A DNA stretch of 64,000 nucleotides, from assembly GCA_041660605.1 (NCBI GenBank), contig JBAZWB010000001.1, positions 201,295 to 265,294 of the forward strand, given 5' to 3'. The position numbers were made by a program, and so were the translations under genes. Of the stretch, positions 22,661-49,845 are shown one piece after another (the first letter of the stretch is position 1; every line of letters starts with the position of its first letter). The notes under the pieces are model-generated. The model was not told the DNA's origin and did not search any database. It saw nothing but the letters and a program-made list of their open reading frames with translations. The DNA is from Patescibacteria group bacterium. GTDB taxonomy: Bacteria; Patescibacteriota; Patescibacteriia; UBA10025; JAHIVO01.

Positions 22661-24079
22661 TTATTTTTGTTGGGTGCCGTCAAACGGCGTTTTTACCGCG
22701 GCGGCAATGCGTGAGAGCGCAGCCAGCGGATTTTCCAGAAAACTGACGATCATTTCCGGCGTCCGTCCGGCTTCCCGGCTGAGAGCATAAGCCAGCCGCA
22801 GCCAGTCGCCGTTGGTTATGTTTTTAATGGTTTCCTTGATAGCCTGCCTTTTTAGCTCCACTCCGACTATGTCCAAGGTGGTCTGCTCCGGCAGGTAGGT
22901 GCGGGCCAAGCCGTCCAGCACCAGGTTGGTCCGGCCGAAAGTCGTTAAAAAAAGTGGAAATTTTATCCTGTGCTTGATCATTATTTTGGTAAATTCCATG
23001 AACCAGAAGCCCAGGCCCTCGTTCTGCGATTGCTCCAGGTAAATTTCCAGGTCTGGTTTTAATGTGGCGGCATATTTCCCGTAGCTGACGCCGGTCATCT
23101 GCGTGGCGATTCTGACGGTTCTTTCTATGTCTCTCAGATAAACGGCGATGATGAGGCTTTTGCACATCTCTATTTCCTTTCTGGACAATTCGGATACCAG
23201 GCCGCAATCGATGTTGGCGACGTCGCCGTGCGGCAGTGCCATGACGTTGGAAAGGTGTGGATCTCCCTGGAACAGGTAAGTGGGAATGTCGTCGCGGAAC
23301 CAGTTGCGCATGGCCGCGTTAATGTAGGTTTTCAGGCTTTTCTCAATGTCGTAGTCGGGGTTGGCCAGGATCTCGTCTTTCCGGCTCATGGGTATGCCGT
23401 CAACAAAATCCATGACCACGACGTTTTCCGTACACAGATTTTCGTGCGGCGCCATGAAGACTCCCTTGCCCAGGTCGCTGCGAAAATTAACGGCTCCGAA
23501 ATCGTACTGCTCCCTGATCCTCCTCATGTTCTTCGCCTCCAGGACGAAGTTCAGGTCTTGCCTGATCCAGCTTTCAAACTGGCCGACCAGCTCAGTGATC
23601 TGCACGTGGCGCAGGGTAGGGGAGAACAGGGCAGCGACGCGTGACAGTATTTTTAATATTTTTATGTCCTCGAGGAATTTATCATCAACGCCCGGACGTT
23701 TGACTTTAACGGCCACCACCGAGCCATCCGGCAGTACGGCTTTGTGAACCTGGCTGACCGAGGCTGAACCCAGAGGCACGGCTTCAAGCACGCGAAAAAC
23801 TTCGCGCCAGGGGCGTCCGTATTCTTTTTTAATAATTTCTACGATGTTGTTAAATTCAATCGGCTTGACCCGGTCCAGCAGTTCCTGCAATGATTCGCAG
23901 TCTTTCCGGGAAAGCAAATCATACCTCATGGAAAGGATCTGGCCGATTTTGATGAACGTCAGTCCCAGTTCCTCAAAGGCTATCTTCAGGCGCCTGCCGA
24001 AGTTTTGTCGGCGCGCAGAAGTGAATCCGTAAAAAACGGTATATTTGGATAATATCCAACAGATTTGGATTATTCGCAT
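22661..24079 (-). CDS. ABC1/UbiB-family atypical protein kinase
   Basis: 'PLGSASVSQVHKAVLPDGSVVAVKVKRPG' (ABC1 glycine-rich loop region) and 'DPHLSNVM'; 472 aa. Confidence 0.7.
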   Translation of the reverse strand: MRIIQICWILSKYTVFYGFTSARRQNFGRRLKIAFEELGLTFIKIGQILSMRYDLLSRKDCESLQELLDRVKPIEFNNIVEIIKKEYGRPWREVFRVLEAVPLGSASVSQVHKAVLPDGSVVAVKVKRPGVDDKFLEDIKILKILSRVAALFSPTLRHVQITELVGQFESWIRQDLNFVLEAKNMRRIREQYDFGAVNFRSDLGKGVFMAPHENLCTENVVVMDFVDGIPMSRKDEILANPDYDIEKSLKTYINAAMRNWFRDDIPTYLFQGDPHLSNVMALPHGDVANIDCGLVSELSRKEIEMCKSLIIAVYLRDIERTVRIATQMTGVSYGKYAATLKPDLEIYLEQSQNEGLGFWFMEFTKIMIKHRIKFPLFLTTFGRTNLVLDGLARTYLPEQTTLDIVGVELKRQAIKETIKNITNGDWLRLAYALSREAGRTPEMIVSFLENPLAALSRIAAAVKTPFDGTQQK

Positions 24080-24313
24080 ATAGTTAAAATTTGTATTACA
24101 ATTGTATTACAAATGTTTATGCAAGTCAAGCTATATTCTGCAGTACAAGAAAAACATCCTCAACTAAAGACTGGTCTACCTCCTGGTGGGGGGTTAATGG
24201 TTGAATGATTTCCTTCAGAGCTTGCAAAAATACTGAATCTTAGCTAAAATCTAAGTGTTTTTTACGTTTGATCGAGGTTTCAACAAACAACTACCATATT
24301 ATAAAATCGCTAA

Positions 24314-24332
24314 GTAAGGTTTGAATCCTTAC
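24314..24332 (+). promoter_or_regulatory. Perfect 6-bp stem hairpin (gtaagg-tttgaat-ccttac) about 35 nt upstream of the KAP NTPase ATG
   Basis: Inverted repeat read from the sequence. Confidence 0.3.
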
Positions 24333-24366
24333 ATTTTTGCTTCAGGTTATACATTTTCTTAAAATA

Positions 24367-27300
24367 ATGAAGACAATATTTAAGCCAATTCCCATAATGA
24401 GCTTGAACACCCATTTATTGATGATAGTGCTTGGTATTGTTGTATCAGAGGTTTTGTATTTGTCACATACAATTTCGCTGCCGATCAGCCACCGAATAAT
24501 AGAAGGGGGGCATGAATATTTATCACCCATTTTAATCAGCTTAGGTATTTTATTGCTTCTTTTCTACTTAGTTAAAAGGGATTTTTTTAAAAGATCAATT
24601 ATTATATTAAAAAGTGGACGATGGGAATTATTAATCCCAATTGCTTTTGGAATTATTATCAGTGTGTCCTTTGGTGGGGTTGGTACGAAAATATATTCCG
24701 CAATTGCATCGTCACTCAACATCTTCCAGCTAATTATTTTTACTTCACTACCCTTCATTGTCGTACTTCTGATTCTTTTGAGTGGTCTAAATGAATATAT
24801 TTGGCACTATAAAAGGGGAAATCAAACTGCACCATTCTTTATTAGTGATGAGGAAAAAGAGGAACTAGAGGATGATCAGCTAGGGTATTCTAAACTTTCA
24901 GAAAAATTCGCTGACAGAATATTAAACCGAGGATCAGTAGATAGCTTGGTTTTTGGTATTGACGCTCCTTGGGGAGTTGGGAAGTCTACCTTCATTAATT
25001 TTTGTATACAATATTGGAAAAAGTCCGAAAACACACAACCAATTATCTATAAATTCAATCCCATCAGGTATGAAGATAAAAATAAACTCATAGAGAAGTT
25101 TGTGGATGGGTTAATCCGAAGTATTCAGAAAGAGATATTTTTGCCAGAAATCAAACCCCTTCTATCCAGGTATACGTATTTATTTAGAAAAACAAAGGCT
25201 ACCTTCTCTTTTTTTGGTATTAATGTCGAATTGTTTTCTAGTGGATACACAGCGGATGACGCATTAGAGGATCTGAAATTGGTACTTAACGGATTTAATA
25301 GAAAAATAATTATTATTGTTGATGACTTGGATAGACTTAACTTTTCTACCATTAAAGATGTTCTATTTGCAATAAATAAGAGTTTTGCACTACCCAATAT
25401 CTCATATGTTTTATGTTATGATACGGCAAACATTAATGCCTTAGAAAAAGAAAAACCTGAAATTGAGAAAATAAGTGAGTTTTTTGAAAAATTTGTAAAC
25501 ATTAAAATAAATCTTTATATTGATAGCGATAAACTCAAAAACTTTATTTCCGAAAGTCAAATCTCTCTTCAAAGTCATAACCCCCAAGTAGACCCCCTTC
25601 TTGTCGGGCAAGCAATGGGGGGGCTAAAAGACATTTTCAACTCAAACGAATACTATAATTATTCACCTTTCATTGGAGATATTAGAAAGTTAAAGCGATT
25701 AATGAATACCGTGATGTTATTGGAAATAGAAAAAACTGATTTTAAAAATAGTGACTTCAACAAAGAAGACCTGGCCCACCTTTTACTCCTATATATTAAT
25801 TACCCAAATATATTTAGAAAAGTATACTACACAGAGACACAGGGAAGAAGAGGATTCTTTTCTGCAGTAACCCCATTTGATATGGCAGACTACCCTAAGG
25901 AAAATGGAAGATCGCCATTTGATGAAAAAGAATTTAAAAATTCTATAAAGTATACAGAGTATATTAAAAGTCTATCATCCATTGAACAACGATTCTTGTT
26001 AAATAAAATTTTTAATGTGGCTGCAAGGCTTCCAAGTGGGGCACGAATTGATGGGATTACGGAAGAGATAAAAAAATCTTATGCATGCTTTAATGGCAGC
26101 CCCTTTTCAGGTAGTGGGAACAACTTGGAAGAGTATCTTAACCTTATTGTTAACCAGTCTAAACCACAAAAAGAAATTCAATATAGATTTTACTTAAATA
26201 AGATCAATGAAATTAAACAAGGAACGCCAATTGATCGGATACTAGCAGAACAAGAATTCGCAATCGAAAAAGGCGAAATGTGCCAGGAGCATCTTTGGAG
26301 AGCAATTCTTAACAGCCTATACGAATTTAACGGAGAAACAGGAAGGCAATTAATAACGTATGTTTTGACGAATATCCACCATTATTCATTCTTTACCAAT
26401 AAAAAGATTGGAGTCGGTTTTAGGGACGACTTAAGTTTATACCTGGTAAAAATGCTAGACACTGATGGCTGGGTTGACCAAAACGGTGGTCATCGTAGGA
26501 ATGACAACAACAATATCAAAGAGATTGCTGAATGGGTCTTTGGTGAGGGAAGGCATGCCAATGATGGAGTTATTCAGACGCTATCCAGTGAAGACAGGGG
26601 CGTGCTCGGGCTTTACGATTTACTTTGTTTTAGACTCTTTTGTAGCGCCGATCGGGGCGGAGATATTTTTAATGTAAGTCGAGCCATCGCATTGCATGGG
26701 GATCCTAAAGCTCCAACTGATGGCCCAACAAAGGACATTGCAGTTGAGGAAATGAGAGAAATTTCGCAGAAGGTATTTCAAATTTTCAACAAACAATATA
26801 TAGACACAAATACTAATATACTTAAACAAATTGACGAACTAAAGCTATCAGATATTACGGGTAGATACGATAGTCTTATACAAACAAAGATCCAGGCTGG
26901 GGAGATTGAAGATGTTGATGCCACAGTTGGTCGTCACATAACCCAGATAAAATCCTTTACTGTCTATCAGTTGGGTAATTCCGAAATTTTTTCGGGTATT
27001 GGTTGTGGTTATTATGACCCAGAAGGACAAGACGATGACCAGGGGATAAAAAAACTCATCAATGACTACCTATTTAATATTTGTTTTAACCCAAGCTTTG
27101 ATAGTGAAAATTATAAGAGGTTTTTGGATTATTTGCTTATTCATTTTGCTAATGTATCTGAACGTGACGGGCATGGGTATATCCCCCATATCAATGAATT
27201 CACCAAAGTTTTAATAAAAGAGAGGCTGGCCCAGTATTGGACTAACAACAATATTGCGATCAAAGAACTGAATCTTACTCAACAAGATAAAAAAATTTAC

Positions 27301-35855: not shown

Positions 35856-36113
35856 ATGCCATATTTTGAAAAAGAAGGACAACTACGGCAAAAAACACTG
35901 GATATGGAGCGCGCCTCCAGATCATTGCGCGAAGAGCTGGAAGCGGTTGATTACTACCAGGAGCGGGTTGACGCGACTAAAGATGAGGAGTTAAAAAAGA
36001 TATTGGCTCACAACCGCGATGAGGAAAAAGAGCACGCGGCCATGTTGATTGAATGGATGCGGAAAAACGATCCGACTTTTGACAAGGAGTTTTCTGAACA
36101 TGATAAAGTGTAG
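35856..36113 (+). CDS. Small ferritin-like protein resembling encapsulated-ferritin (EncFtn)
   Basis: 'ELEAVDYYQERVDA...ILAHNRDEEKEHAAMLIEWMRKND' closely matches the EncFtn metal-site region as I recall it. There is no C-terminal cargo peptide and no shell gene nearby. Confidence 0.4.
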   Translation: MPYFEKEGQLRQKTLDMERASRSLREELEAVDYYQERVDATKDEELKKILAHNRDEEKEHAAMLIEWMRKNDPTFDKEFSEHDKV

Positions 36114-36298
36114 CGAAGAATTTTTAATTTCTAAATCCTAATTTCTAGACAATATCTAATGTATAAAATTCTAATGTTCCAAACAGTGCAAATAAATAAG
36201 TCTATAATTTAGAACATTTGAATTTGGAATTTATTTAGGATTTCGTACTTCGAATTTTTTTAAAGGTCGTTTTAATCAATAAATAAGGAAATAAATTT

Positions 36299-36601
36299 AT
36301 GCCAAGGAAAAATGGGCAAGGTCCTGTCTGGGGCGGCGGCCCGGGTGCTGGTTGGGGCGCTGGTCCGTGTGGAGCTGGTAGAGGCGCGCGCGGCGGGTTG
36401 GGTAGGGGTTTCGGACGGGGCAAAGGCTGCGGCCTGGGCTGGGGCTTCATACCTGGCCGTATGTATGACGGCTATAACTACGGTTACCAGCTAAGCAAAG
36501 ACGAGGAGCTGAAAATGATGGAAGATGAGGAAGCGGCATTAAAAGAAGAATTGGAGGCTTTGCAAAAAGCCAAACAACAGCTGCAATCTGTGAAAAAATA
36601 A
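36299..36601 (+). CDS. Gly/Arg-rich small protein with a C-terminal coiled coil, DUF5320-like
   Basis: 'MPRKNGQGPVWGGGPGAGWG...GRGFGRGKGCGLGWG' then 'EELKMMEDEEAALKEELEALQK'. Confidence 0.4.
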   Translation: MPRKNGQGPVWGGGPGAGWGAGPCGAGRGARGGLGRGFGRGKGCGLGWGFIPGRMYDGYNYGYQLSKDEELKMMEDEEAALKEELEALQKAKQQLQSVKK

Positions 36602-36694
36602 GGTAGTCCCGCTTATAATAACACTAAGGTTGGGCTAAAGAATATGAATTACAGCGGGACTATCCAGCCCAACTATATTGATGAAGAATAATTT

Positions 36695-36970
36695 ATGCCA
36701 AGACCGAGATTAAGAAGAAAGCTGTGCATCAACCCCGACGTATTTTATTTCAAACCACGGGGCGTGCCCTTAAACCAATTGAAAGTAATATCAGTTACCA
36801 GGGAAGAGCTGGAGGCTTTTTGGCTGGTAGATGTAAAAGGATACGAGCAAACCAGAGCGGCCCGGCATATGGGGACTTCACAGAGCACGATACAGCGCAT
36901 CCTTCAGTCGGCAAGAAAAAAAACAGCTCAAGCTCTTATCGAAGGCAAGGCGGTTGCTATTGAAAAATAA
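36695..36970 (+). CDS. DUF134/UPF0251 family predicted DNA-binding protein
   Basis: 'MPRPRLRRK...YFKPRGVPL...LEAFWLVDVKGYEQTRAARHMGTSQSTIQRIL'. Confidence 0.55.
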   Translation: MPRPRLRRKLCINPDVFYFKPRGVPLNQLKVISVTREELEAFWLVDVKGYEQTRAARHMGTSQSTIQRILQSARKKTAQALIEGKAVAIEK

Positions 36971-37060
36971 TAGGATATCAGATGTAAGTAATATTTTCGC
37001 AGAATCAGTTTTTATTTGTGTTAATGTAAGTTTGATCGGGTATTAAAAGGCGTTAGATTC

Positions 37061-38233
37061 ATGAATAAACCATATTTTTTTAAAATTTTATTTTTTGGTT
37101 TGCTTATAGTGCCTGTGATGGTCTCCTTTTCAGATGGCGCTAAAGCCCAGACAGGCGAGGAGACGTTTAATGCCCGCGTGGCTGAAGTCTTGGAGCAAAA
37201 AACCGTCCCTTCAGAGGATGGCGCTCCTATTATTCAGCAAAAACTTAAATTAAAGGGTTTGTCCGGCAGTTGGGACGATAAGGAGATTATTTTTGACGGT
37301 ACGCAGCACGAAGTAATCTCCGCCAGCACTTATCAGGTGGGCGATAAGGTCATGGTTAATAGTTCCAAAGACGCGGATGGCAATGACGTGTTTTACGTCA
37401 CAGACTACGTCCGGCAGGGCGCGATCTACTGGCTGGCAGCATTATTCGCCTTGGTCGTGGTCGCTGTCGGCAGACTGAAAGGATTCCGGGCATTAATTGT
37501 TTTAATACTGACATTCTTGGTAATTCTGAAATTCATTGTTCCTAGAATCCTGGCAGGCAACAGCCCTTTATTTATCAGCATCGTCGGTTCATTATTTATT
37601 CTGGTTGTATCCGTCTATATCACCGAGGGATTTAAGCGCACCTCCACGGTGGCTGTTTTTTCAATATTCATCGCTTTAGTCATAACCGGACTTTTGTCCG
37701 TGTGGTTTACGGCTTTGACAAAATTAACCGGATTCGCCAGCGATGAGGCGATTTATTTGATGGGGCTAGCAGGCCAAAATATCAATGTTCAGGGATTGCT
37801 TTTAGCTGGCATTATTATAGGCGCACTTGGTGTTCTGGATGACGTAATTATTTCTCAGGTAATATTAGTAAAAGAATTAAAGCAAGCTAATTTACGGCTA
37901 TCTAACAGGCAGGTTTTTAGCCAAGCCATGAAAGTCGGTGTTTCCCATATGAGTGCCATGGTCAATACTTTATTTTTAGCTTATGCCGGGGCGGCCTTAC
38001 CACTGCTGATTTTATTCAGCGTCAAGGAACCGCCATTTTTAACTTTCAGTCAGGTTTTAAATAATGAAATAGTGGCCACGGAAATTGTCAGGACTTTGAC
38101 CGGCAGTGTCGGCTTGGTATTAGCTATGCCGATTGCCACCATACTGGCGGTATTTTTTATTTCAGCAAGTCATCAAACTCCAATTACACAAGAAAAAACT
38201 GTTCGAGATTATCAATCAGAATTGGAAAAATAG
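37061..38233 (+). CDS. YibE/F-like polytopic membrane protein with an N-terminal extracytoplasmic domain
   Basis: Signal peptide, about a 120-aa soluble domain, then 7 TM with a 'GVLDDVIIS' motif. Confidence 0.35.
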   Translation: MNKPYFFKILFFGLLIVPVMVSFSDGAKAQTGEETFNARVAEVLEQKTVPSEDGAPIIQQKLKLKGLSGSWDDKEIIFDGTQHEVISASTYQVGDKVMVNSSKDADGNDVFYVTDYVRQGAIYWLAALFALVVVAVGRLKGFRALIVLILTFLVILKFIVPRILAGNSPLFISIVGSLFILVVSVYITEGFKRTSTVAVFSIFIALVITGLLSVWFTALTKLTGFASDEAIYLMGLAGQNINVQGLLLAGIIIGALGVLDDVIISQVILVKELKQANLRLSNRQVFSQAMKVGVSHMSAMVNTLFLAYAGAALPLLILFSVKEPPFLTFSQVLNNEIVATEIVRTLTGSVGLVLAMPIATILAVFFISASHQTPITQEKTVRDYQSELEK

Positions 38234-38657: not shown

Positions 38658-39758
38658 ATGAAAAAGATTCTCAATAAAAAAAGTTTTTTTGCATCATTAG
38701 GCTGCTTAGTGCTGATCGTTACCGCTTTATTTTTATTTATGGCTCCCTCCAAAGCCCAGACTAAGCCGGGAATGATCCTGTATTTTGGCCAGGGATGTCC
38801 CCACTGCGCCGTTGTAGAGCAATATATCCAGGATAATAAACTTGACGATACCTTTTCCATCATTCGCAAAGAAGTATATTCCAATTCGCAAAATGCCCAG
38901 GAACTCACTCAATATTTTATAGAAAATAATGTGCCGTCCGAGCAACAAGGAGTTCCATTTGCCGTAATTAGCGGCCATTATTATGTCGGCGATGGACCAA
39001 TTATTTCCGCTCTGGAGAATCCATCTAATCAGATTACCCGGCCAGTGCCGACCAACACAAACGCAGCGCAGACACCAACGACAACGGAAAAACACCTGAA
39101 CTTTTTAATCGTTACCGGAGCGGCGTTGGTTGACGCGATTAACCCGTGCGAATTCGCTGTCTTGATAATACTTATGGCTACGGTACTGGCTGCCAGCCAT
39201 CGCCGACGCGCCTTACTGTCAGGTCTGTTGTTTTCGTTGGCTGTTTACATTTCATATTTAGCGATGGGGCTAGGTCTTTTTTCGGCTATTGCGGCTGTTG
39301 GCGTGACGTCTTGGATCCAGCGAGTAGCTGGCGGATTAGCCGTCGTACTTGGTCTGTTCAACCTCAAAGACGCCATTTGGTATGGCAAAGGATTTTTATT
39401 GGAAGTGCCTTTCAGTTGGCGACCGCGCATGAAAAGGCTGTTGCAATCCGTGACTAATCCATTCGCCGCGCTGTTGATTGGATTCGTGGTCAGCCTGTTC
39501 CTGCTGCCCTGCACCTCCGGACCGTACATCGTCATCGTTGGCATGCTGGGTAAGGAATCGACGTTCTCCCAGGCCTTGTGGTGGCTTATCTATTACAACC
39601 TCATTTTCATCCTGCCAATGTTAACAATAACTTTTGCTGTATTTTTTGGGTTTAAACCGGAATCCCTTGAGTCCATTCGGCAGAAACGCCTGCGACTGCT
39701 GCACGCTGTAGCGGGCATACTATTATTGGCTTTAGGCATTTACCTGGTCGTCTATTAA
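38658..39758 (+). CDS. Thioredoxin-like domain fused to a CcdA/DsbD-type thiol:disulfide transmembrane electron transporter
   Basis: N-terminal 'GQGCPHCAVVEQY' (CxxC). The TM region has the paired Cys typical of CcdA ('INPCEFAV', 'LLPCTSGPY'). Confidence 0.65.
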   Translation: MKKILNKKSFFASLGCLVLIVTALFLFMAPSKAQTKPGMILYFGQGCPHCAVVEQYIQDNKLDDTFSIIRKEVYSNSQNAQELTQYFIENNVPSEQQGVPFAVISGHYYVGDGPIISALENPSNQITRPVPTNTNAAQTPTTTEKHLNFLIVTGAALVDAINPCEFAVLIILMATVLAASHRRRALLSGLLFSLAVYISYLAMGLGLFSAIAAVGVTSWIQRVAGGLAVVLGLFNLKDAIWYGKGFLLEVPFSWRPRMKRLLQSVTNPFAALLIGFVVSLFLLPCTSGPYIVIVGMLGKESTFSQALWWLIYYNLIFILPMLTITFAVFFGFKPESLESIRQKRLRLLHAVAGILLLALGIYLVVY

Positions 39759-40657: not shown

Positions 40658-40852
40658 GCAAATATATTTTATAAAGTAAAAAATTTACCCATACTTTTAT
40701 AGTGGCGAGTGTTTTTAAATTATTATGAAGAACAGTCAAATAATAAATGAAAGTGACGTTAGCTTTTTAGCTAACTTTCGTATAAAATGAAAGGCAGGCG
40801 CGTATTTTTGCGTAGTAATGGACAACTGGCGTTTTAAAAGCTGTATAAATTT

Positions 40853-41842
40853 ATGAAACAATTGAGAGCAAAAATATTAAATATCAGAGCGATCAGCCCG
40901 ACGGCTGTTGAAATATCCATGGTCAGGGCCAATGGACGGAATTTTTTCGGATTCCTGCCCGGCCAGTACGCGACTCTGAGCTTTCCCGGGCACGACCGGC
41001 TGCGCGGGGAAAGGTCTTTTTCCATTACCAGCGCGCCTGAGGATCTCTCGACCTTGAGATTCGGCATCCGCATCTACGGGAGATATACCAGAGCCCTGCT
41101 AAATCTCCGGCCAGGCGACCCGGCTTTGGTAGCCGGCCCTTTCGGGCAATTCACTTTTGTCCCGGCCCGAGACGAGTCAGCCGTATTTCTCGCCGGCGGC
41201 ATCGGCATCACGCCTTTTCTCAGCATGATCCAGTCAGCTGCCAACCAGCGTTTGCCGAATAAACTTAATCTTTTTTACAGCGTAAAGACGTTGTCTGACG
41301 CTCCATATATCCAGGAACTGCAGGAGCTGGGAAAGATAAATCCTGCTTTACGCACTGTATTTGCGGTGAGCAATGACGAGGTGACCGGTAAGGACGGCAG
41401 TTTTGTGCGCGGGCGGATCAGCCGGGATCTGATCGCGGAAAAACTTGAGGGAGATTATCTCAACCGCACGTATTTCATCTGCGGCCCGCCGCCTTTTATG
41501 AAATCCATGAAAGAAATACTGGGTTCGCTGGGAGTGCCGTCTTTTGAATTAAAAAGCGAGCGCTTCGGCGTCGGTTCGTCCGCTTTTATAGAACGCGGCA
41601 CCCCGGTGCCGAAATATATTTTTGCCGCCTGGGGAGTGACGGCTATGATTCTGCTGGGCGTGGTTATCAGGGTGGAAAGCCTCAGGCGGGCTAATGCCCA
41701 GACCGCTAACACTGTCCCCTCAACACAGGTTAATACCAATGCCAGCCCTTCCATTTCAAACAATCAAAATAGTAACAGTACCAATATCCAGCAGACCTCG
41801 CCCGCGCCGGTCAGGCCTATTCCCCGCACAGCGGTTTCATAA
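40853..41842 (+). CDS. FNR-like FAD/NAD(P)H oxidoreductase with a C-terminal TM helix and an S/N/Q/T-rich tail
   Basis: 'FLPGQYATL', 'RSFSITS' (RxYS), 'GPFGQF', 'LAGGIGITPFLSM' and 'ICGPPPFMKSM'. Confidence 0.75.
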   Translation: MKQLRAKILNIRAISPTAVEISMVRANGRNFFGFLPGQYATLSFPGHDRLRGERSFSITSAPEDLSTLRFGIRIYGRYTRALLNLRPGDPALVAGPFGQFTFVPARDESAVFLAGGIGITPFLSMIQSAANQRLPNKLNLFYSVKTLSDAPYIQELQELGKINPALRTVFAVSNDEVTGKDGSFVRGRISRDLIAEKLEGDYLNRTYFICGPPPFMKSMKEILGSLGVPSFELKSERFGVGSSAFIERGTPVPKYIFAAWGVTAMILLGVVIRVESLRRANAQTANTVPSTQVNTNASPSISNNQNSNSTNIQQTSPAPVRPIPRTAVS

Positions 41843-41859
41843 AAAATTTACTGTCAATT

Positions 41860-42810
41860 ATGCAAGAAAAAATCCAGACTTTTACCGGCAATTTTTTCGC
41901 CTTAAATACCACGATTGAGGGCGGTTTTCGGACTAAACAGGATTTAGCCAAGGATTTGTGGCGGCTGGTCAGCCGGGAGGTTAAAAAATTCGAACAAAGA
42001 TTCAGCCGTTTTCTGCCTGATTCGGAGCTGTCGCGCGTGAACAAAAATGCCGGCAAGAGAGTAAAGGTCAGCCGGGAATTTTTTGATTTGCTCAGAGCCG
42101 CCCAGCGCATCTGGTCGGCCACCAGCGGATTGATCGACCCGACCATCGGCCGCGCGCTGGCAGACGCCGGTTACGACGCCTCATTCGAGCTGCTGGAGAA
42201 AAAAAATCGGGTTAATAGATTGCCAGGCAGCTTCAAAGCTGTTACGCTGGCCGATTTGTCCGTTGATAAATCAGCCAGCACCGTTAAAATGCCGGAAGGC
42301 GTGAGCCTGGATTTCGGCGGCCTGGGAAAAGGCTATCTGCTTGATCAATTAGCCGGGAAGATAGAAAAAAGTACGGAAGATTACTGGTTGTCTCTCGGCG
42401 GCGATCTGATCATCTCCGGCACAGATGAGATGAATCAAGCCTGGCCGGTTAATGTCCAGAATCCGGCCGTGCCTGAACTAGATTTGTTCCAGCTACGGCC
42501 GGTCAGCGGCCGCTGGGGCATAGCCACCTCAGGCACCACGAAAAGACGCGGAGAAAGATCGGGAGTGCCGTGGCATCATATTATTAACCCGCGCACCGGC
42601 CGTCCGGCGGACACAGATTTATGCGCAGTAACGGTTCTGGCCGAGACAGCCCTGGAAGCGGACGCTTTTGCCAAGGTAGTATTGCTGCGCGGATCCCGTG
42701 ACGGCCTGAACTGGGCCAGGCATCAGCACCAGGTGGAGGCCTTAGCCATTACCAATGACGGCAAAGTGAAGGCTACGCAGCGCATGAAATCATATATTAT
42801 ACGTTTATGA
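41860..42810 (+). CDS. apbE: FAD:protein FMN transferase (ApbE)
   Basis: 'SRFLPDSELSRVN', 'IATSGTTKRRGE' and 'HHIINPRTG'. Confidence 0.85.
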   Translation: MQEKIQTFTGNFFALNTTIEGGFRTKQDLAKDLWRLVSREVKKFEQRFSRFLPDSELSRVNKNAGKRVKVSREFFDLLRAAQRIWSATSGLIDPTIGRALADAGYDASFELLEKKNRVNRLPGSFKAVTLADLSVDKSASTVKMPEGVSLDFGGLGKGYLLDQLAGKIEKSTEDYWLSLGGDLIISGTDEMNQAWPVNVQNPAVPELDLFQLRPVSGRWGIATSGTTKRRGERSGVPWHHIINPRTGRPADTDLCAVTVLAETALEADAFAKVVLLRGSRDGLNWARHQHQVEALAITNDGKVKATQRMKSYIIRL

Positions 42811-43580
42811 AATTAAAGATATTATTATTTGCAGGTTTATTGGCTTTGCTCTTGCCTTTGCATGCGCACGCGGCCTCCGTGCTGGCGGAAGAATCAGAGC
42901 GTGATGATTTTGAGCAGGAAGATGTTCAAGCGCCAATTCAGGCTGTTCCCCTGAATACGCAGAATAATGCCGTTAACGCACCCGGCAGTACAGTGAATTC
43001 AAATACCGCACCGGCGCCTGCCATATCCAGTTCCTTTCCCTGGGCTTGGACAGTTACGCGTTCTGCCGGTATCGCCTCATATTTATTACTGGGAATTTTA
43101 ACCATCTCCGGCATTTTATTGAGCACGGGTTTATTTTTCCGTATTTTTGATCCGGCTACCGCCTGGTCGATACATCGGGCGATCGCTTCGGTTCTGCTGG
43201 TGTCCGTTTTGCTTCATGTCGGCGCCCTGCTCTTTGACCATTTTATCGGCCTGCATATTTTGGACGTACTAGTGCCTTTTGTCTCTTCATACCGCCCGGC
43301 GCTGGTGGCTCTGGGCATAGCCGGTTTTTACTTATTATTGTTATTGCTGATCACCTCGCTATACACCATGACTAAGCATCCACGTTTTTGGAGGATTGTG
43401 CATTATTCGGGTTTTATAATGTTTTCTGCGATTTTTGTGCATGGCCTGCTGATCGGCACTGACATGAAGCTTGCCTGGATAAAAGCAATTTACTGGATTA
43501 TGGCTGTTCTGGTCTTGGCCGCCGTTATTTACCGTCTGTGGTGGAGACATCGCGGACCCCAGCTGGATATTGGCAATTAA
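42807..43580 (+). CDS. Ferric-reductase-domain (FRD; NOX/MsrQ-like) di-heme transmembrane protein
   Basis: His pairs in TM helices, 'HVGALLFDHFIGLH' and 'HYSGFIMFSAIFVHG' (H-x13-H); 4-bp overlap with apbE. Confidence 0.5.
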   Translation: MKLKILLFAGLLALLLPLHAHAASVLAEESERDDFEQEDVQAPIQAVPLNTQNNAVNAPGSTVNSNTAPAPAISSSFPWAWTVTRSAGIASYLLLGILTISGILLSTGLFFRIFDPATAWSIHRAIASVLLVSVLLHVGALLFDHFIGLHILDVLVPFVSSYRPALVALGIAGFYLLLLLLITSLYTMTKHPRFWRIVHYSGFIMFSAIFVHGLLIGTDMKLAWIKAIYWIMAVLVLAAVIYRLWWRHRGPQLDIGN

Positions 43581-43722
43581 TTAAAAAAAATATAACCAGC
43601 CGGCAGAAGGCTGTATAGTTTTTTTGTATTTCAAATATCTACCGGCTGCCTTGACAATCCAATCGGTTTGGATTTATAGTGTTTGTTAATGGTACCTTTT
43701 AACGCTTTTTGGAGGATGAAAA

Positions 43723-44586: not shown

Positions 44587-47500
44587 ATGAAAAAAACACT
44601 AATAATTGGCGTGGCCGCGGCAGTTGTGATTGCCGGCGGTATTTTTGCGGTGGTCTTCATCAATCAACCGGAGAAAACTCCGGTAAAAAACAACCGGACT
44701 GTGCCGGTTATTTATACCCAGGCAGACAATCAATTCACGCTGAAAGCGGACAAAGCCGATGCCCTGGGCGTGGAATCGGACAGCACTTTTACTCTCTCCA
44801 CCAAAGAGCCGGTGAGCGCAGATTTGATCAAGGGCAACCTGGCAGTTGAGCCGAAAATCGCCTATAAGGTGCAGTCGTCTGACAGCAATACTTTCAGCAT
44901 CACTCCTGAATCCGCGCTGGAAAAAAACACTGTTTATACTTTTTCCGTCGTGGCGCAAGCAGAAGGCGCGGCTACCAAGCGGGAATACCAGTGGGCTTAT
45001 CAGATTAAGGATAATTTTAAAATTACCGGCACCCTGCCCAGGGACAAAACCGCCAACATCCCTCAGAATACCGGGATTGAAATAATTTTTTCCCACGAAA
45101 ATTACACTGACTTTGAGAATTTCATTACTATCACCCCGCAAGTCAGCGGCAGATTTGAACAGCACCGCAAGACTTTAGCCTTCGTCCCGGATAGCCTGGC
45201 ACCCGGCACGCTTTATACTGTTTTGGTGAAGAAAGGCCTGCCTTTGTCCGGTAGCAGCGATACTCTGGCGGAGGACTACAGTTTTCAGTTTGAAACCGAC
45301 ACTCAGCAGGCTCCCCAGGGAGGCCTGTCGTTCAGCAAAGATTTTTTTGAATATCCCTCCAATGAAGCGCCGATCCTGACAATGCAGCAATATAGCGATA
45401 ATCCGGGTGAGGTGCAGGTGGAAGCTTTTAAATATCCAACCTTTGAAGCTTTTGCTGAAGCCGTGAAAAGCCTGGACGCAGTGCCGTATTGGGCTTATTA
45501 TGCCAGGCGCAACAGTTCTTATTCCACTGACGGTTTGATTTCAGCAGTTACCTTCCAGGCTGAGGTAAAGCAGTCGGATTACCAGCGATACATCGAATTT
45601 CCTGAACAGCTGAGCACTGGCCAATATTTAATCCAGATTACCAGGGATAATAATACCGCTCAGGCTTTTCTGCAGGTGGGCAATCTGACGGCCAGCTATC
45701 AGGGCGGCAAAGAAAATTCATTCATCTGGGCGCACAGCCTGGACACCCAGAAACCAGCGTCGGGTACGACTGTTTCCTTTTCGCACGATAGACAGTTCAC
45801 TGCCAAGACAGACAAGGAAGGCCTGGCGGAATTTGCCAGTCCCGCGTTAACTACTGACGAGAGCGAAGGCCTGACCAGCACTTATTATTTCACACTTGAT
45901 AATAACGGCGAAAAATTATTACTGCCGGTGGTAAATCACTATGGCACGTGGATGAGTTCAACTGCGTCAGAAGACTATTGGTCTTATTTATATACGAACC
46001 GGACGTTGTATTCGCCGACGGACAGCATTAAATTCTGGGGCGTTATTAAATCCCGCAGCGATAAACAGGAAGCCCAGGAGCTGCAGGTAAGGTTAGTCAG
46101 CTACGGGTATTATTATAATGAAGATTCAAATCCGATCATTGACCAGAAAACTCTGCCAGTTTCTTCATTTGGCACGTTTACCGGATCATTCGACTATGCC
46201 AACCTGAACCCTGGCGGTTATTCGATACAGGTTTTGGCCGGTGGAGAGGAAATCCTGAGCACCTGGGTGGATGTCGCCACCTACACCAAGCCGCCGTACA
46301 AGATTGAAGTAACGACGGAGAAGAAGGCGATTTTTGAAGGAGAGGATGCGGTCTTCAATATTAAATCAGCGTTTTTTGACGGCACTCCGGTGGCTAATCT
46401 GGACCTGGAATATACCGGCGCGCTCGGCAGCGGACAGGTAAAAACCGACGTTAACGGCCAGGCGCAGGTAACCTTGCAGTCAAGCTACACTAACGCCGGT
46501 TATTATCCGAATTATGCATATTTTTCCATTCATCCGGTCAAATCGGAGATCTCGGAAATAAGCACGGACGCGAACATTTACACTTTTGGGCCGCACTACG
46601 ACCTGCAATCCACCATAGACAATGACGGGCTGGTGTCCGGCAGCGTGCATCAGGTTGACCTGGCTTCCATCAATAAGGAAGGCGGAGACTTCAAATGGGA
46701 ATATCAGGGCGATCCGGTAGCCAATTTGAATCTGGGAATAAAAATTTACCGCGAGTATTACACCAAAACAGAAACCGGAACTTTTTATGATTTTATCAAT
46801 AAGAAAACCAATAAGACCTATAACTACGATTTCCATTCTGATTTTACCAAGGAGTCCACGGCTGTCAGTGATAAGGATGGCAAGTTCACTTACGATTTTA
46901 AAGCGGAGACTAATGATAACTATAAAATTGAAATTACCGCTACGGACGCTGAGGGGCGCCAGGCGAAGAGTTACGCGTATTATTACCAGGGACCGCGATT
47001 CTACGGCTATAATTCGGGGTATGATAATTATTATCTTATAACTTCGCAGGTAGCGGAGACGGAGAACCAGCCCGTGTATCAGCCGGGGCAGGATATTACC
47101 CTGAATTTCAACAAAAACGAAGAGCTTCTCGCCGGTGCAGACCAGAAAAATTTCGTTTATTTCAAGGCGCAGAAAAATTTCTTCGACATAGAAGTTTCCA
47201 AAAATCCGACAATAGAATTCAAATATAAGGATTCCTACGCGCCAAATATTTACGCCTATGGAATTTATTTTGACGGCCGCAGCTATCACCTGACCGATTC
47301 CCTGAACATGAAATACGACACCAGCCTGAAGAAATTAAATATTGACATTCAGCAGGATAAAAAGTTCTACCGTCCGGGCGAAAAGGTGACCATGAATTTA
47401 AATGTGACTGATAAAGATAAAAGACCAGTGCGGGCGGAAGTCAACATTTCCGCCATTGATGAAGCTTTGGCCGCCATTCAATGGGAAAATCCCATCAACA

Positions 47501-49845
47501 TATTGAGCACGCTTTACCAGAATCTGCCGACGCCGCTGGCTTTCGTATACCAAAGCTATGATAAAGCCCTGACTGCCAATGCGGAGGGCGGCGGCTGTTT
47601 CACCGGTGAGACGGAAATTCTCATGTCAGACGGCAGTAAAAAGAACATTGCAGATATTAAAATCGGCGATGAAGTGCTGACCAGGCGTTCGCCGCAGAGC
47701 GATGAGATGGCCGCGGCCAAAGTCACAAATAAGCTGGTGCACATGGTTGATTCTTATCTGACGATCAACGGGTTTCTCAATGTCACCCCGGAGCATATAG
47801 TTTATTTGAATGGTGATTGGCAGACAATCGGAACGGCGAAAATCGGCGATGAGCTCATGGATTATTCGGGCAATAAAATTGTCATTGAATCCATTGTCGC
47901 TCATCATCTGCCCACTGCCGTTTATAATTTGAAAATCCAGAATTACCATACTTTCATCGCCGACGGCATCTATGTGCACAATGAAAAGGGCGGCGGCCGG
48001 GAAAATTTCCAGGATATCGCTTATTTCGGCTCTGCGGAAACCGGCAGCGACGGCCAGGCTACTGTCCAATTCACCTTGCCGGATAACGTTACTTCCTGGC
48101 AGACCGCCGTTCACGCTTTAACCAAGGATCTGCAGGCAGACGCAACCCAGACAGCGGTCATCTCCACTTTGCCTTTCTTCGTTGATGTTTCCGCTTCTGC
48201 CAATTATCTGGTAGGCGATAAGCCGACCGTTAAATTAAGGAGCTTCGGCACAGGATTAAAAACCGGAGAAAATGTCATATATGACATAACTTACCCAGGC
48301 TTCAGCGAGGAGACCCAGACATTGCAGGGCGGAGCCGCGGATCCGGTGGAATTTACGCTTCCGGATTTTGCCGAAGGCGACCATTCGATCAAGGTCAAAG
48401 CCCACCAGGGCAATTCGGAAGATACGGTTACCAAAAAAATTATGTACCGCACTTCCAATATCACCACGGGGGTGACACGGCATTATCTGCTAGCGCCGCA
48501 GGTGCAGATAGAAGGCAGCAGCGCCGGCCGCACTAATCTGACGTTTGTCAGCGAGGACAGGGGGCAATATTATAATTACCTTAAATATTTGTCCTTCGCC
48601 GGCAGCGACAGGGTTGACCAGAAAGTCGCTAATTTTGCTTCCGCAAGTTTATTGAACCAATATTTCGGGGAAAATAACACGGCCGAAGCGATCAACTTCA
48701 CTGATTATCAGGTCGGGGAAGGGGGATTGTCATTACTGCCTTATTCTTCCGCAGATTTATTGTTAACTGCCAAAGCCATGGAAATGGCCGGCGACCAGTT
48801 TGACACCCAATTGGCGAAAAGCTATTTCCGGGGAATTCTGGATAATAAATCCAGCAATATAGATGAAGTCGCTTACGCGCTTTTTGGCCTGGCTAATCTG
48901 CATGAACCGGTACTGACTGACATTAATTTATTAATCGACAATAATGAAGTACCACCGGAGCTGATGCTCTACCTGGCCAGGGCCGTCTCCAACCTGGGCG
49001 CCACCGAATACGCCGCCACTCTGCTACAGCAGGTAATTAACGACCATGGCGTGCAGTCCGATCCTTATCTAAAAATAGATCTGGGCACCACGCAGGATGA
49101 CAATACTGAATACACCTATCAGGCGGCAATTTTGGCAGCGGCGGTTTCATCCGACCAGGCAGGCAAGCTTTTTGACTATGCTCAGGAAAATCCCGCCCGC
49201 GATCAGCTTAATGTTTTAGACGAGCTGGCTTACATTAAAACCAGCCTGCCTCTTTTGACAGACAATAAGGTCAGTTTTTCCTATACTTTGGGAGCTGAAA
49301 CTAAACCCATAGAATTAACCAACAATCAGGCACTGACGGTTTCCGTCACTCCGGAGCAGCTGCAGCAAATAACATTCAGCGCGATTGACGGCCAGGTTGG
49401 CGTGATCGCCTCTTATCAGCAGGCGGCTGATTGGCGTCAGCTGCCAACGGATAATTTAGTATCAGTCAAAAGGGAGTATCTGGTTAACGGCCAGGCCGTC
49501 ACGAAGTTCAATGAAAGCGATATTGTGCAGATAAACCTGACTCCCACTATCGCCGAAAAAGCGCTGGATAATGAATATCAGCTGACTGACTATCTGCCGG
49601 CAGGTCTGAAACTGCTGACCAATATTACTTCGCGCGGATTGGATTATGACCAGCAGCTGGGCTTCCCTTACGAGGTCAACGGTCAGGCGGTTAAATTCTG
49701 GACCGGCAAACCGGCCAAGGCATTCCACTATTACGCGATAGTCGTAGGCAAAGGCCAATATAAGGCTGAACCGGCGGAGATCCAGGGCTTTGTCGCCAAG
49801 GACAGCAGGAATTTCAGCCAGGCACTGGATATCACTATCAATTAA
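44587..49845 (+). CDS. Giant secreted multidomain protein with alpha-2-macroglobulin/MG-domain-like architecture and an embedded Hint (intein-like) domain
   Basis: Signal anchor; repeated beta-rich domains; 'FTLPDNVTSWQ' resembling the A2M 'PDSITTW' motif; helical TED-like C-terminal region with no CxEQ. The Hint domain has blocks 'CFTGETEIL', 'TPEHIVYL', 'VYNLKIQNYHTFIADG' and 'IYVHN'. Confidence 0.55.
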   Translation: MKKTLIIGVAAAVVIAGGIFAVVFINQPEKTPVKNNRTVPVIYTQADNQFTLKADKADALGVESDSTFTLSTKEPVSADLIKGNLAVEPKIAYKVQSSDSNTFSITPESALEKNTVYTFSVVAQAEGAATKREYQWAYQIKDNFKITGTLPRDKTANIPQNTGIEIIFSHENYTDFENFITITPQVSGRFEQHRKTLAFVPDSLAPGTLYTVLVKKGLPLSGSSDTLAEDYSFQFETDTQQAPQGGLSFSKDFFEYPSNEAPILTMQQYSDNPGEVQVEAFKYPTFEAFAEAVKSLDAVPYWAYYARRNSSYSTDGLISAVTFQAEVKQSDYQRYIEFPEQLSTGQYLIQITRDNNTAQAFLQVGNLTASYQGGKENSFIWAHSLDTQKPASGTTVSFSHDRQFTAKTDKEGLAEFASPALTTDESEGLTSTYYFTLDNNGEKLLLPVVNHYGTWMSSTASEDYWSYLYTNRTLYSPTDSIKFWGVIKSRSDKQEAQELQVRLVSYGYYYNEDSNPIIDQKTLPVSSFGTFTGSFDYANLNPGGYSIQVLAGGEEILSTWVDVATYTKPPYKIEVTTEKKAIFEGEDAVFNIKSAFFDGTPVANLDLEYTGALGSGQVKTDVNGQAQVTLQSSYTNAGYYPNYAYFSIHPVKSEISEISTDANIYTFGPHYDLQSTIDNDGLVSGSVHQVDLASINKEGGDFKWEYQGDPVANLNLGIKIYREYYTKTETGTFYDFINKKTNKTYNYDFHSDFTKESTAVSDKDGKFTYDFKAETNDNYKIEITATDAEGRQAKSYAYYYQGPRFYGYNSGYDNYYLITSQVAETENQPVYQPGQDITLNFNKNEELLAGADQKNFVYFKAQKNFFDIEVSKNPTIEFKYKDSYAPNIYAYGIYFDGRSYHLTDSLNMKYDTSLKKLNIDIQQDKKFYRPGEKVTMNLNVTDKDKRPVRAEVNISAIDEALAAIQWENPINILSTLYQNLPTPLAFVYQSYDKALTANAEGGGCFTGETEILMSDGSKKNIADIKIGDEVLTRRSPQSDEMAAAKVTNKLVHMVDSYLTINGFLNVTPEHIVYLNGDWQTIGTAKIGDELMDYSGNKIVIESIVAHHLPTAVYNLKIQNYHTFIADGIYVHNEKGGGRENFQDIAYFGSAETGSDGQATVQFTLPDNVTSWQTAVHALTKDLQADATQTAVISTLPFFVDVSASANYLVGDKPTVKLRSFGTGLKTGENVIYDITYPGFSEETQTLQGGAADPVEFTLPDFAEGDHSIKVKAHQGNSEDTVTKKIMYRTSNITTGVTRHYLLAPQVQIEGSSAGRTNLTFVSEDRGQYYNYLKYLSFAGSDRVDQKVANFASASLLNQYFGENNTAEAINFTDYQVGEGGLSLLPYSSADLLLTAKAMEMAGDQFDTQLAKSYFRGILDNKSSNIDEVAYALFGLANLHEPVLTDINLLIDNNEVPPELMLYLARAVSNLGATEYAATLLQQVINDHGVQSDPYLKIDLGTTQDDNTEYTYQAAILAAAVSSDQAGKLFDYAQENPARDQLNVLDELAYIKTSLPLLTDNKVSFSYTLGAETKPIELTNNQALTVSVTPEQLQQITFSAIDGQVGVIASYQQAADWRQLPTDNLVSVKREYLVNGQAVTKFNESDIVQINLTPTIAEKALDNEYQLTDYLPAGLKLLTNITSRGLDYDQQLGFPYEVNGQAVKFWTGKPAKAFHYYAIVVGKGQYKAEPAEIQGFVAKDSRNFSQALDITIN
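47596..47982 (+). other. Hint/BIL domain (Cys1 to terminal Asn; 129 aa) inside the 44587..49845 protein
   Basis: Intein blocks A, B, F and G are recognisable. It is flanked by GGG on both sides ('AEGGG|C...VHN|EKGGG'); the +1 residue is Glu. Confidence 0.65.

Follow-up and report, generated by a model that had tools for sequence, protein, structure and literature searches.

The systems closest to the locus described here are the 'MsrQ-like' flavinylation clusters, in which a di-heme protein of family PF01794 stands beside apbE and an NAD(P)H module (PF00175 or NuoF-like) and for which electron transfer from NAD(P)H to an extracytosolic flavin has been proposed (Meheust et al. 2021, eLife, PMC8238504). 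A related route is the flavin-based extracellular electron transfer of Listeria, a fermentative cell of the Gram-positive type, with the ApbE protein FmnB and the membrane-tethered, flavinylated PplA (PMC9973259). Here we analyze a stretch of 64,000 nucleotides (nt) from a Patescibacteria group bacterium (GenBank assembly GCA_041660605.1, contig JBAZWB010000001.1, positions 201,295 to 265,294, forward strand), hereafter the window, in which positions 40853-43580 comprise three + strand open reading frames (ORFs) for an FNR-family reductase, an ApbE and a membrane cytochrome of the ferric reductase domain (FRD) type. In our reading, to which we give a probability of about one half, this operon would by itself provide a chain, independent of quinones, through which electrons from cytoplasmic NAD(P)H leave the cell via a flavin mononucleotide (FMN) bound to the C-terminal tip of the reductase. 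As judged from the sequences, the apparently missing target of ApbE is most likely this conserved tip, an attachment site of a kind not described before.

The window shares with the 'MsrQ-like' clusters, which are defined by a PF01794 gene within five genes of apbE, the placement of an FRD gene beside ApbE, here directly adjacent and overlapping by 4 nt. It differs from them in that the ApbE has neither a signal peptide nor a lipidation site, in that the FNR is a separate protein with its own transmembrane (TM) anchor, and in that no FMN_bind, DUF3570 or DUF2271 gene was found among the window neighbors tested. Instead of the typical FMN_bind (PF04205) acceptor, the candidate acceptor is a short tip without a folded domain. 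Meheust et al. dropped ApbE and acceptor genes without signal peptides from their survey and found flavinylation to be 'strikingly underrepresented' in the candidate phyla radiation (CPR) (PMC8238504); with this signal-peptide filter, a module of the window type would have been missed.

The module also resembles the NADPH oxidases, namely, the eukaryotic NOX/DUOX enzymes and the bacterial SpNOX, in combining two histidine pairs, borne by two helices with spacings of 14 and 13 residues, with an FNR-type partner for FAD and NAD(P)H. However, FRD and FNR are fused in those enzymes and encoded by separate genes in the window, although a fusion does occur in one relative (L020); moreover, ApbE and the tether with its tip are integral to the window module, and O2, the electron acceptor of NOX, is only a candidate acceptor here. 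In Escherichia coli, Fre-MsrQ(-MsrP) reportedly forms a two-component NOX-like system in which Fre, a separate FNR-family flavin reductase, feeds an FRD-family cytochrome. Fre is said to be soluble and encoded elsewhere, and MsrQ is said to serve the periplasmic molybdoenzyme MsrP, with no ApbE or tether involved. The window module resembles this system in having a separate FNR protein that would feed the FRD and differs from it in the TM anchor of the FNR, the ApbE and the tether. The parts of the operon are as follows.

40853-41842, + strand: protein 1 (FNR), 329 residues
40853-41569, + strand: FNR-type FAD/NAD(P)H-binding domain, protein 1 residues 1-239, predicted to be cytoplasmic (Pfam, motifs, AlphaFold)
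41612-41683, + strand: single TM anchor of protein 1, hydrophobic core at residues 254-277 (hydropathy, AlphaFold helix 251-285)
41684-41821, + strand: disordered low-complexity tether, residues 278-323, rich in N/S/T/A/P/Q, predicted to be extracytoplasmic (composition, AlphaFold confidence)
41822-41842, + strand: conserved C-terminal tip P-R-T-A-V-S and stop codon, predicted ApbE flavinylation site (conservation)
41860-42810, + strand: protein 2 (ApbE), 316 residues, no signal peptide, predicted to be cytoplasmic
42807-43580, + strand: protein 3 (FRD), 257 residues
42807-42875, + strand: signal-peptide-like N terminus or first TM helix of protein 3, residues 1-23, MKLKILLFAGLLALLLPLHAHAA (hydropathy 3.1)
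42876-43037, + strand: acidic patch SVLAEESERDDFEQEDV and low-complexity linker, residues 24-77, clade specific, consensus 'LAExExxExExE' in alignment A2
43038-43580, + strand: FRD core with the predicted bis-histidine ligands of two b hemes (conservation, family Pfam matches, AlphaFold, Foldseek)
43173-43175, 43215-43217, 43401-43403 and 43440-43442, + strand: His123, His137, His199 and His212, predicted heme ligands

Protein 1 is an FNR-family reductase, with Pfam matches above the cut-offs to NAD_binding_1 (PF00175; 2.7e-15, 57.4 bits, cut-off 22) and FAD_binding_6 (PF00970; 1.8e-5, 25.4 bits, cut-off 21.1). Its best NCBIfam matches are reductase components including BenC, MmoC and Hmp, all far under the equivalog cut-offs. 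In FNR proteins, the motif R-x-[YF]-[ST] serves FAD binding and G-G-x-G-x-x-P serves NAD(P)H binding, with C-G-P as a third cofactor motif. The corresponding residues of protein 1, R54-S-F-S57, G115-G-I-G-I-T-P121 and C210-G-P212, are 98 to 100% conserved among 117 homologues (consensus R54-x-F-S57 and GGIGxTP). AlphaFold predicted residues 1-239 with a predicted local distance difference test score (pLDDT) of >94 and with the strand and helix pattern expected of a β-barrel plus Rossmann fold; the rest of the protein is one long helix (residues 251-285) followed by a disordered tail with a pLDDT of 45 to 60. A TM helix near residue 255 is present in nearly all of the 120 closest FNR homologues.

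These 120 homologues share a common plan of FNR domain, one TM helix, a low-complexity tail of 55 to 250 residues and a conserved tip, the linker being hypervariable in both sequence and length (55 to 250 residues). From its sequence, we take the tail of protein 1 to be an anchor-tether-tip unit. The tips fall into recognizable classes. The window has a class A tip, P-R-T-x-[VML]-S at the C terminus, in which P(-6), T(-4) and S(-1) are invariant and R(-5) is found in 34 of 35 homologues; the strict form PRTxxS occurs in 34 of the 120, or 35 with one P-Q-T variant included. Class B, typical of Saccharibacteria, is a Cys-bracketed loop, C-T-T-[TS]-x-S-G-V-T-T-C, that ends 60 of the 120 proteins, and 42 of these 60 contain a match to [ST]G[AVI][ST], mostly SGVT and almost always within the tip. 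The remaining 26 proteins have other tips, such as SSGGS or TTTxSK[IL]P. In a 32-sequence alignment (A3), the only invariant positions of the tail are P317, P324, R325, T326 and S329, and T326 and S329 are the only conserved Ser/Thr residues outside the cofactor motifs of the FNR family (117 homologues). When all six frames of the CPR loci were considered, a class A ending was found in 14 of 1437 segments, and all 14 were the protein directly upstream of ApbE. No Pfam or NCBIfam family matched any tether protein. Some FNR-tether proteins of about 500 residues (P0098; L009:6001-7527) carry an immunoglobulin (Ig)-like domain within the tail, before an SSGGS tip.

The tether unit is mobile: loci with an FNR-FRD fusion or with no FNR encode it in a small gene of its own before ApbE. 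In the Wolfebacteria locus L020, a 422-residue FNR-FRD fusion (Ferric_reduct, FAD_binding_6 and NAD_binding_1) has no tail, and directly before ApbE lies a separate gene whose 100-residue product consists of a TM helix and a Q/P-rich linker with the ending '...PQPRTILS'. Locus L017 has no FNR, and its stand-alone tether of 155 residues ends in '...KPRTTVS'. In Fictibacillus (L021), a TM helix and tail ('...GSSGSSR') are followed by ApbE and then by a minimal FRD of 173 residues. Loci of an actinobacterial type (L029 and L030) encode an Arg-rich N terminus, a TM helix and an A/P/S/T linker, after which come the genes for ApbE, the FRD and a NuoF-like protein; their tethers end in '...STTGATVVVP' (L029), with TGAT present, and '...SSTGS' (L030). 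The NAD(P)H module in these loci (L029:5690-7338 and L030:5813-7045) is NuoF-like (Complex1_51K plus NADH_4Fe-4S), sometimes with a small ferredoxin, and replaces the FNR; the part that feeds in electrons can therefore be exchanged, whereas tether, ApbE and FRD are always kept.

The published target motif of ApbE is [S/T]GA[S/T] (PMC11334425). A metagenome scan with actinobacterial-type FRDs gave >576 relatives, of which 80 loci were kept, and the motif count is based on the 40 of these in which an ApbE is preceded by 400 nt of sequence or more. For 37 of these 40 loci, an ORF supported by the GC content of third codon positions (GC3), with a TM helix and a low-complexity linker, ends between -6 and +81 nt from the ApbE start. 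The last residues of these ORFs are [ST]-G-[AG]-[ST] at the very C terminus, namely, VSGGS (31), TSGGS (3), VSGAT (3), TSGAS (2) and SSGGS (1), that is, the published motif or its A-to-G variant. Among 3508 six-frame, stop-terminated segments, 52 end in [ST]G[AG][ST], and 52 of 52 lie on the FRD strand. The CPR FNR-tethers that end in SSGGS (L009, P0095, P0098, P0103 and P0108) connect the CPR and actinobacterial-type groups. By position and homology, T326-A-V-S329 at the C terminus of the window protein is predicted to be a diverged form of the actinobacterial-type motif, and since the last Ser/Thr carries the flavin in the canonical motif, Ser329 (or possibly Thr326) is the predicted flavin site. 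One actinobacterial-type locus, L031, has two tandem tether ORFs before ApbE, both ending in VVSGGS (ends at L031:1408 and L031:1907). An 'SGAT' in the ORF before ApbE of L022 was rejected as out of frame, as GC3 periodicity passes to the ApbE frame at about 4050-4080 and the motif lies at 4097.

Protein 2 belongs to the ApbE family of FAD:protein FMN transferases (PF02424; 5.6e-56, 190.4 bits, cut-off 25.6) and matches the solved ApbE structures 7esa (1.5e-27) and 6nxi (5.3e-25). The second His of its 'WHHIINP' motif, which aligns with 'YSHIIDP' of 6nxi, is conserved in 7 of 7 module ApbEs; the catalytic base is His257 in the Vibrio cholerae protein (PMC12052999). No signal peptide, lipobox or TM helix was found in the window ApbE, in the six ApbEs of L001-L009 or in 115 full-length closest homologues. 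All of them begin at the first strand of the fold, and the actinobacterial loci leave no room for an ApbE signal peptide. Most ApbEs, though not all, have a signal peptide or lipoprotein signal at the N terminus. A tag of only 7 residues is enough for modification by ApbE, which prefers a terminal position, and cytosolic ApbEs exist (PMC12052999).

Protein 3 has five hydrophobic helices past its N-terminal segment and two His pairs, 123/137 (i+14) and 199/212 (i+13). The di-heme site of NOX is likewise formed by two His pairs with spacings of i+14 and i+13. The four His residues are invariant in 33 homologues, down to 28% identity, and the protein probably binds two b-type hemes, as this pattern suggests. 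If the N-terminal segment is counted, it would adopt the six-helix topology of NOX, in which helices 3 and 5 bear the His residues. PF01794 (Ferric_reduct) does not match the window protein, which gives only a PF01292 match of 21.3 bits (below the cut-off of 30.1); 27 of the 33 aligned homologues match PF01794, the best at 7.7e-10. AlphaFold predicted the FRD core with a pLDDT of >90, and the high-probability membrane-protein matches of Foldseek are all di-heme or FRD-type carriers, namely, Dcytb, DUOX1, SpNOX and STEAP1. A search of the PDB with the FRD family profile placed the membrane domain of STEAP4 first, and a search with the single sequence gave noise and a weak match to STEAP4. Alignment A1 was too diverse for a genome scan, and A2 was used instead. 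The acidic patch that precedes the core is not present in the FRDs of Saccharibacteria, Fictibacillus or actinobacteria. This region could bind cations or Fe(III), or it could be a docking site for the Arg-containing tip. Its counterpart in L017 (L017:4502-5410) contains bacterial TSP3 calcium-binding repeats, and this locus has an extra acidic secreted protein between tether and ApbE (L017:3046-3591).

The three genes are separated by an 18-nt gap between proteins 1 and 2 and joined by a 4-nt ATGA overlap of ApbE and FRD. The order FNR-ApbE-FRD recurs with equally tight junctions in L001, L003 and L005 (the clade of the window), L007 (Saccharibacteria), L008 and L009, and it is also found in the species-representative genomes of L010-L013, L015 and L016 (Kerfeldbacteria and others), L018 (Niyogibacteria) and L019 (Peregrinibacteria). 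An earlier note on this DNA had read the operon as a split NOX-like system related to ApbE-associated clusters, made of three consecutive, tightly coupled genes for an FNR-family reductase with its own C-terminal TM anchor and tail, an ApbE that flavinylates extracytoplasmic proteins and a di-heme FRD with paired TM histidines. The core of that reading holds. The ORF coordinates are exactly as given there and agree with tight coupling, the Pfam scores and the one hydrophobic helix bear out the anchored reductase, the alignment of 33 homologues retains the heme-ligating histidines, whose loss would have spoken against it, and >15 independent loci keep all three genes together in this order. The 'S/N/Q-rich tail' is indeed disordered, but it is not a mere appendage, since it ends in a conserved tip. 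The identity of the ApbE also stands, although it is not an extracytoplasmic ApbE of the typical kind, as neither it nor the 115 homologues have a signal peptide.

Downstream and upstream sequences set the operon apart.

40658-40852, + strand: AT-rich intergenic region of 195 bp, probable promoter region (sequence; weak sigma-70-like matches)
40758-40775, + strand: perfect 7-bp inverted repeat GTTAGCTTTTTAGCTAAC upstream of the operon
43597-43613, + strand: terminator-like hairpin CAGCCGGCAGAAGGCTG, then a T-rich run, starting 17 nt past the FRD stop codon

The inverted repeat could be an operator or a hairpin, to judge from its sequence. Because of the AT-rich region upstream and of the terminator-like hairpin and the strong promoter-like site for the next gene that follows it downstream, we regard the three genes as a discrete operon. 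A fusion of FNR and ApbE by frameshift or read-through was considered, as no stop interrupts the ApbE frame over the 28 codons before its start, yet such fusions occur in 0 of 120 FNRs and 0 of 120 ApbEs. An alternative genetic code was also rejected; the in-frame stops before ApbE are TAA or TAG, and the long ORFs read normally in table 11.

In the proposed mechanism, the cytoplasmic FNR domain of protein 1 would oxidize NAD(P)H on its FAD. Electrons would then cross the membrane via the inner and then the outer b heme of the FRD, as in NOX, and at the outer face they would reduce the FMN that ApbE is predicted to attach through a phosphoester to the tip of protein 1, presumably at Ser329. 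The leash-bound flavin would hand the electrons to an external acceptor, for which O2, Fe(III) or another compound are candidates. The tip would be flavinylated in the cytoplasm, with cytoplasmic FAD, before the tail is translocated. Cytoplasmic flavinylation before export is probable because an export signal is missing from the ApbE and the tail is synthesized last; such an order also fits the position of the 3' end of the tether, which adjoins the ApbE start in almost every locus, and the fact that, when the TM helix of the window protein emerges, only about 50 residues are left to be translated. An extracellular position of the tail is the most likely one, because a single TM helix splits it from the FNR domain, because the stand-alone tethers have Arg-rich N termini before the TM helix (N-in, C-out), and because class B tips are Cys bracketed and some tails contain an Ig-like domain.

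The tip may be compared with two known cases. The engineered 'flavin-tag' is an artificial ApbE target tag (reviewed in PMC12052999), and in FMN_red experiments have demonstrated flavinylation of a natural motif that lies on an unstructured C-terminal extension and folds back onto the flavin-binding domain (PMC11334425). In contrast to both, the motif of the window type ends a disordered tail of 50 to 250 residues without a flavin-binding domain. We tentatively propose, and would put somewhat short of an even chance, that the window encodes a natural counterpart of the 'flavin-tag', in which an ApbE without a signal peptide puts FMN on a C-terminal Ser/Thr of a disordered, domain-less tether that is then exported, giving a shuttle that is reduced at the outer heme and reaches across the cell wall. 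The ApbE of Klebsiella pneumoniae also lacks a signal peptide and is a genuine cytoplasmic transferase, with a soluble fumarate reductase with FMN_bind as its substrate (PMC12052999); the candidate substrate here differs in being a membrane-anchored tail predicted to end outside. The likeness to Listeria lies in an ApbE-flavinylated, membrane-tethered extracytosolic protein that exports electrons, as proposed here from the sequences. However, electron transfer in Listeria relies on Ndh2, a quinone, EetA/B, folded FMN_bind domains, an ApbE that is a secreted lipoprotein and a dedicated FAD exporter, none of which the window module would need.

Several observations weigh against our reading. The window tip, T-A-V-S (T-x-x-S), does not fit the canonical [S/T]GA[S/T] and is linked to it by position and homology alone. 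The ApbE is predicted to be cytoplasmic and the tip to be outside, so that either the tail is exported in flavinylated form or one of the topology predictions is wrong. The search for other ApbE substrates in this metagenome-assembled genome covered the 64-kb window only, part of a contig of 904,720 bp. Eleven actinobacterial-type loci, several of them on short contigs, have a tether and an FRD with no ApbE detected at the locus, and three place ApbE in another position. We had expected loci without ApbE to lack the tether as well; this expectation failed, as the 11 loci keep the tether ORF directly before the FRD, and the tether is therefore tied to the FRD and gives no independent support for the link to ApbE. 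Moreover, the Thr of the ApbE motif 'ADxL[SA]T', which we take to be a Mg2+ ligand, is replaced by Lys in the window protein ('ADAFAK', near residue 270; the Asp is kept), and the chemistry could differ. Of 107 clade members, 99 have Lys at this position, while the copies from Saccharibacteria have Ser. In V. cholerae, a Lys of the substrate (NqrC Lys207) helps to activate the acceptor Thr (PMC12052999), and one may speculate, by analogy, that the enzyme-borne Lys of 'ADAFAK' replaces the substrate Lys for a domain-less substrate.

The same ApbE features could be taken to mean that protein 2 is a cytoplasmic FAD pyrophosphatase or flavin handler, which would load noncovalent flavin for FNR and FRD in a flavin-auxotrophic CPR cell; the missing signal peptide, the Lys-for-Thr exchange and the noncanonical window tip are all compatible with this. 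FAD pyrophosphatase activity has been reported for Ftp, the ApbE homologue of Treponema pallidum. We nevertheless consider this function improbable, since the catalytic His and the other core motifs are kept and since canonical acceptor motifs end the ORF directly before ApbE in 37 of the 40 related loci. In addition, the known cytosolic ApbEs are genuine transferases (PMC12052999). If ApbE is a transferase, its target could still be the FRD itself, for example, at Ser160 in the outer loop 'PFxSxYxP' or at Thr183, where the fourth helix of the 6-TM fold reaches the inner side, or else the FNR domain, with the tail as a spacer or docking peptide. ApbE and FRD form the most constant gene pair (L020 and L021), and S160, [ST]183 and T218 are invariant in nine ApbE-linked FRDs, which makes S160 and [ST]183 possible targets and counts against the tip. 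E. coli MsrQ, furthermore, is annotated as FMN binding. Yet the same Ser/Thr residues are found in FRDs without a neighboring ApbE (Methanolobus and E. coli MsrQ), none of these sites resembles the ApbE motif, and modification of the FRD would leave unexplained the conserved tip, the C-terminal SGAT, SGAS or SGGS of relatives and the maintenance of the tether as a gene of its own. For the FNR, T326 and S329 are the only conserved Ser/Thr residues outside the cofactor motifs. We therefore regard these targets as unlikely.

A flavinylated tip that stays in the cytoplasm, where its FMN would ferry electrons from the FNR or NuoF-like module to the inner FRD heme, would remove the topological conflict with a cytoplasmic ApbE and would suit a tether that accompanies such varied NAD(P)H modules (FNR, or NuoF-like plus ferredoxin). 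With a single TM helix between them, however, the FNR domain and the tail cannot both be cytoplasmic, and the Arg-rich N termini of the stand-alone tethers favor an N-in/C-out orientation, while the Cys-bracketed tips and the Ig-like domain of some tails suggest an extracytoplasmic site. In NOX, moreover, FAD reduces the inner heme directly. This arrangement thus seems quite unlikely to us. We give similarly little credence to the version of the earlier note, in which ApbE would serve a substrate elsewhere in the genome and the split NOX would be part of a local envelope redox island with an upstream thioredoxin-CcdA fusion and a SHOCT protein. Both neighbors exist, and the substrate search was confined to the window. 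However, in 0 of >15 related loci are they conserved, while the three-gene cassette is, and the terminator-like hairpin and the 195-bp intergenic region delimit the operon. The neighbors were thus correctly seen, but a functional island does not follow, as the flanks are unlike in every relative (two-component systems, a Zip transporter, superoxide dismutase, ATP synthase or ribosomal proteins). Because the flanks vary while the cassette is conserved, we consider this 'redox island' a coincidence of this genome. As regards the substrate, the note was right that the neighbors lack an [S/T]GA[S/T] motif, and none is found in the three operon proteins either; it left the substrate unclear, and the conserved tail tip is now the best candidate. 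Consistent with a self-contained cassette, the Pfam-annotated gene tables of L001, L003, L005 and L007-L009 list no FMN_bind (PF04205) gene and no gene for another known ApbE acceptor over a distance of 6 kb.

Two other candidates for a substrate were rejected. Four [ST]GA[ST] matches elsewhere in the window (nt 31739, 60428, 18102 and 53921) were set aside because of the ORFs that contain them: one resembles a metal-binding protein, one is SufS-like with the site 'LDSGAS', and two are on the minus strand and probably spurious. The sequence 'TRSAGIAS' at the start of the FRD core is part of a family-wide R-x-x-G motif present in all homologues.

Several features of the surroundings are of note. 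The upstream fusion of a secreted thioredoxin/glutaredoxin-like domain and a CcdA/DsbD-like membrane part (38658-39758, + strand) has no Pfam match and only weak NCBIfam matches (DsbD, 1.2e-6; YruB, 8e-4), and the SHOCT protein matches PF09851 (7e-9). Neighboring Zip, CorA or superoxide dismutase genes of some loci are not conserved. In several lineages, but not in the window, a fourth gene follows the FRD and encodes a TM helix and a Big_14 Ig-like domain with two Cys residues ('ENxCPxEPL...W' and 'QPGKY[RK]L'); its product may be an extracellular partner or acceptor. It was found at the following positions.

L007:8815-9663, fourth gene
L008:8781-9383, fourth gene
L017:5394-5867, fourth gene
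L020:6260-6781, fourth gene
L023:148-1053, fourth gene

In the window, three small genes at 35856-36970 (+ strand) encode an EncFtn-like ferritin (3.8e-35), a DUF5320 protein and a DUF134 helix-turn-helix protein and are followed at 37061-38233 by a YibE/F membrane protein; the region 35856-38233 may be a metal-handling neighborhood, and it is not kept beside the module in relatives. Downstream, at 44587-49845 (+ strand), lies the gene for an alpha-2-macroglobulin-like protein of 1752 residues (A2M_BRD, MG2, bMG3 and A2M domains), in which a Hint/PT-HINT module that resembles an intein-type insertion splits the sequence at about residues 998-1132. The GC content drops to 0.33 at 24001-26000, compared with a window average of about 0.46.

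Taken together, the module would work like the 'MsrQ-like' systems and a split NOX and differs from them in architecture, the proposed flavinylation of the tip being the novel part. In the literature searched, with subscription-only papers outside the search, we found no work that links ApbE with Patescibacteria or Saccharibacteria, no description of a tethered, domain-less substrate and no use of the phrase 'tethered flavin'. If our reading is true, ApbE would have a new class of substrate, namely, a C-terminal tip that has no domain and sits on a disordered tether, and the minimal 'flavin-tag' would already exist in nature; it would also pose a question of topology, as a cytoplasmic transferase would serve an extracytoplasmic site. 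Surveys that require a signal peptide would miss this group, including hundreds of actinobacterial-type loci with an upstream ORF that ends in VSGGS, VSGAT or TSGAS, and flavinylation would be common rather than rare in the CPR.

To our knowledge, CPR bacteria are generally without quinones and respiratory chains. Patescibacteria, most of which are known only through their genomes, are considered fermentative and short of sinks for reducing equivalents, and a widespread conduit of this kind would be a concrete and testable piece of their physiology. If true, these three genes would give CPR bacteria a minimal means of extracellular electron transfer and of reoxidizing NAD(P)H without quinones, with a possible role in host interaction through the production of reactive oxygen species or the reduction of iron.

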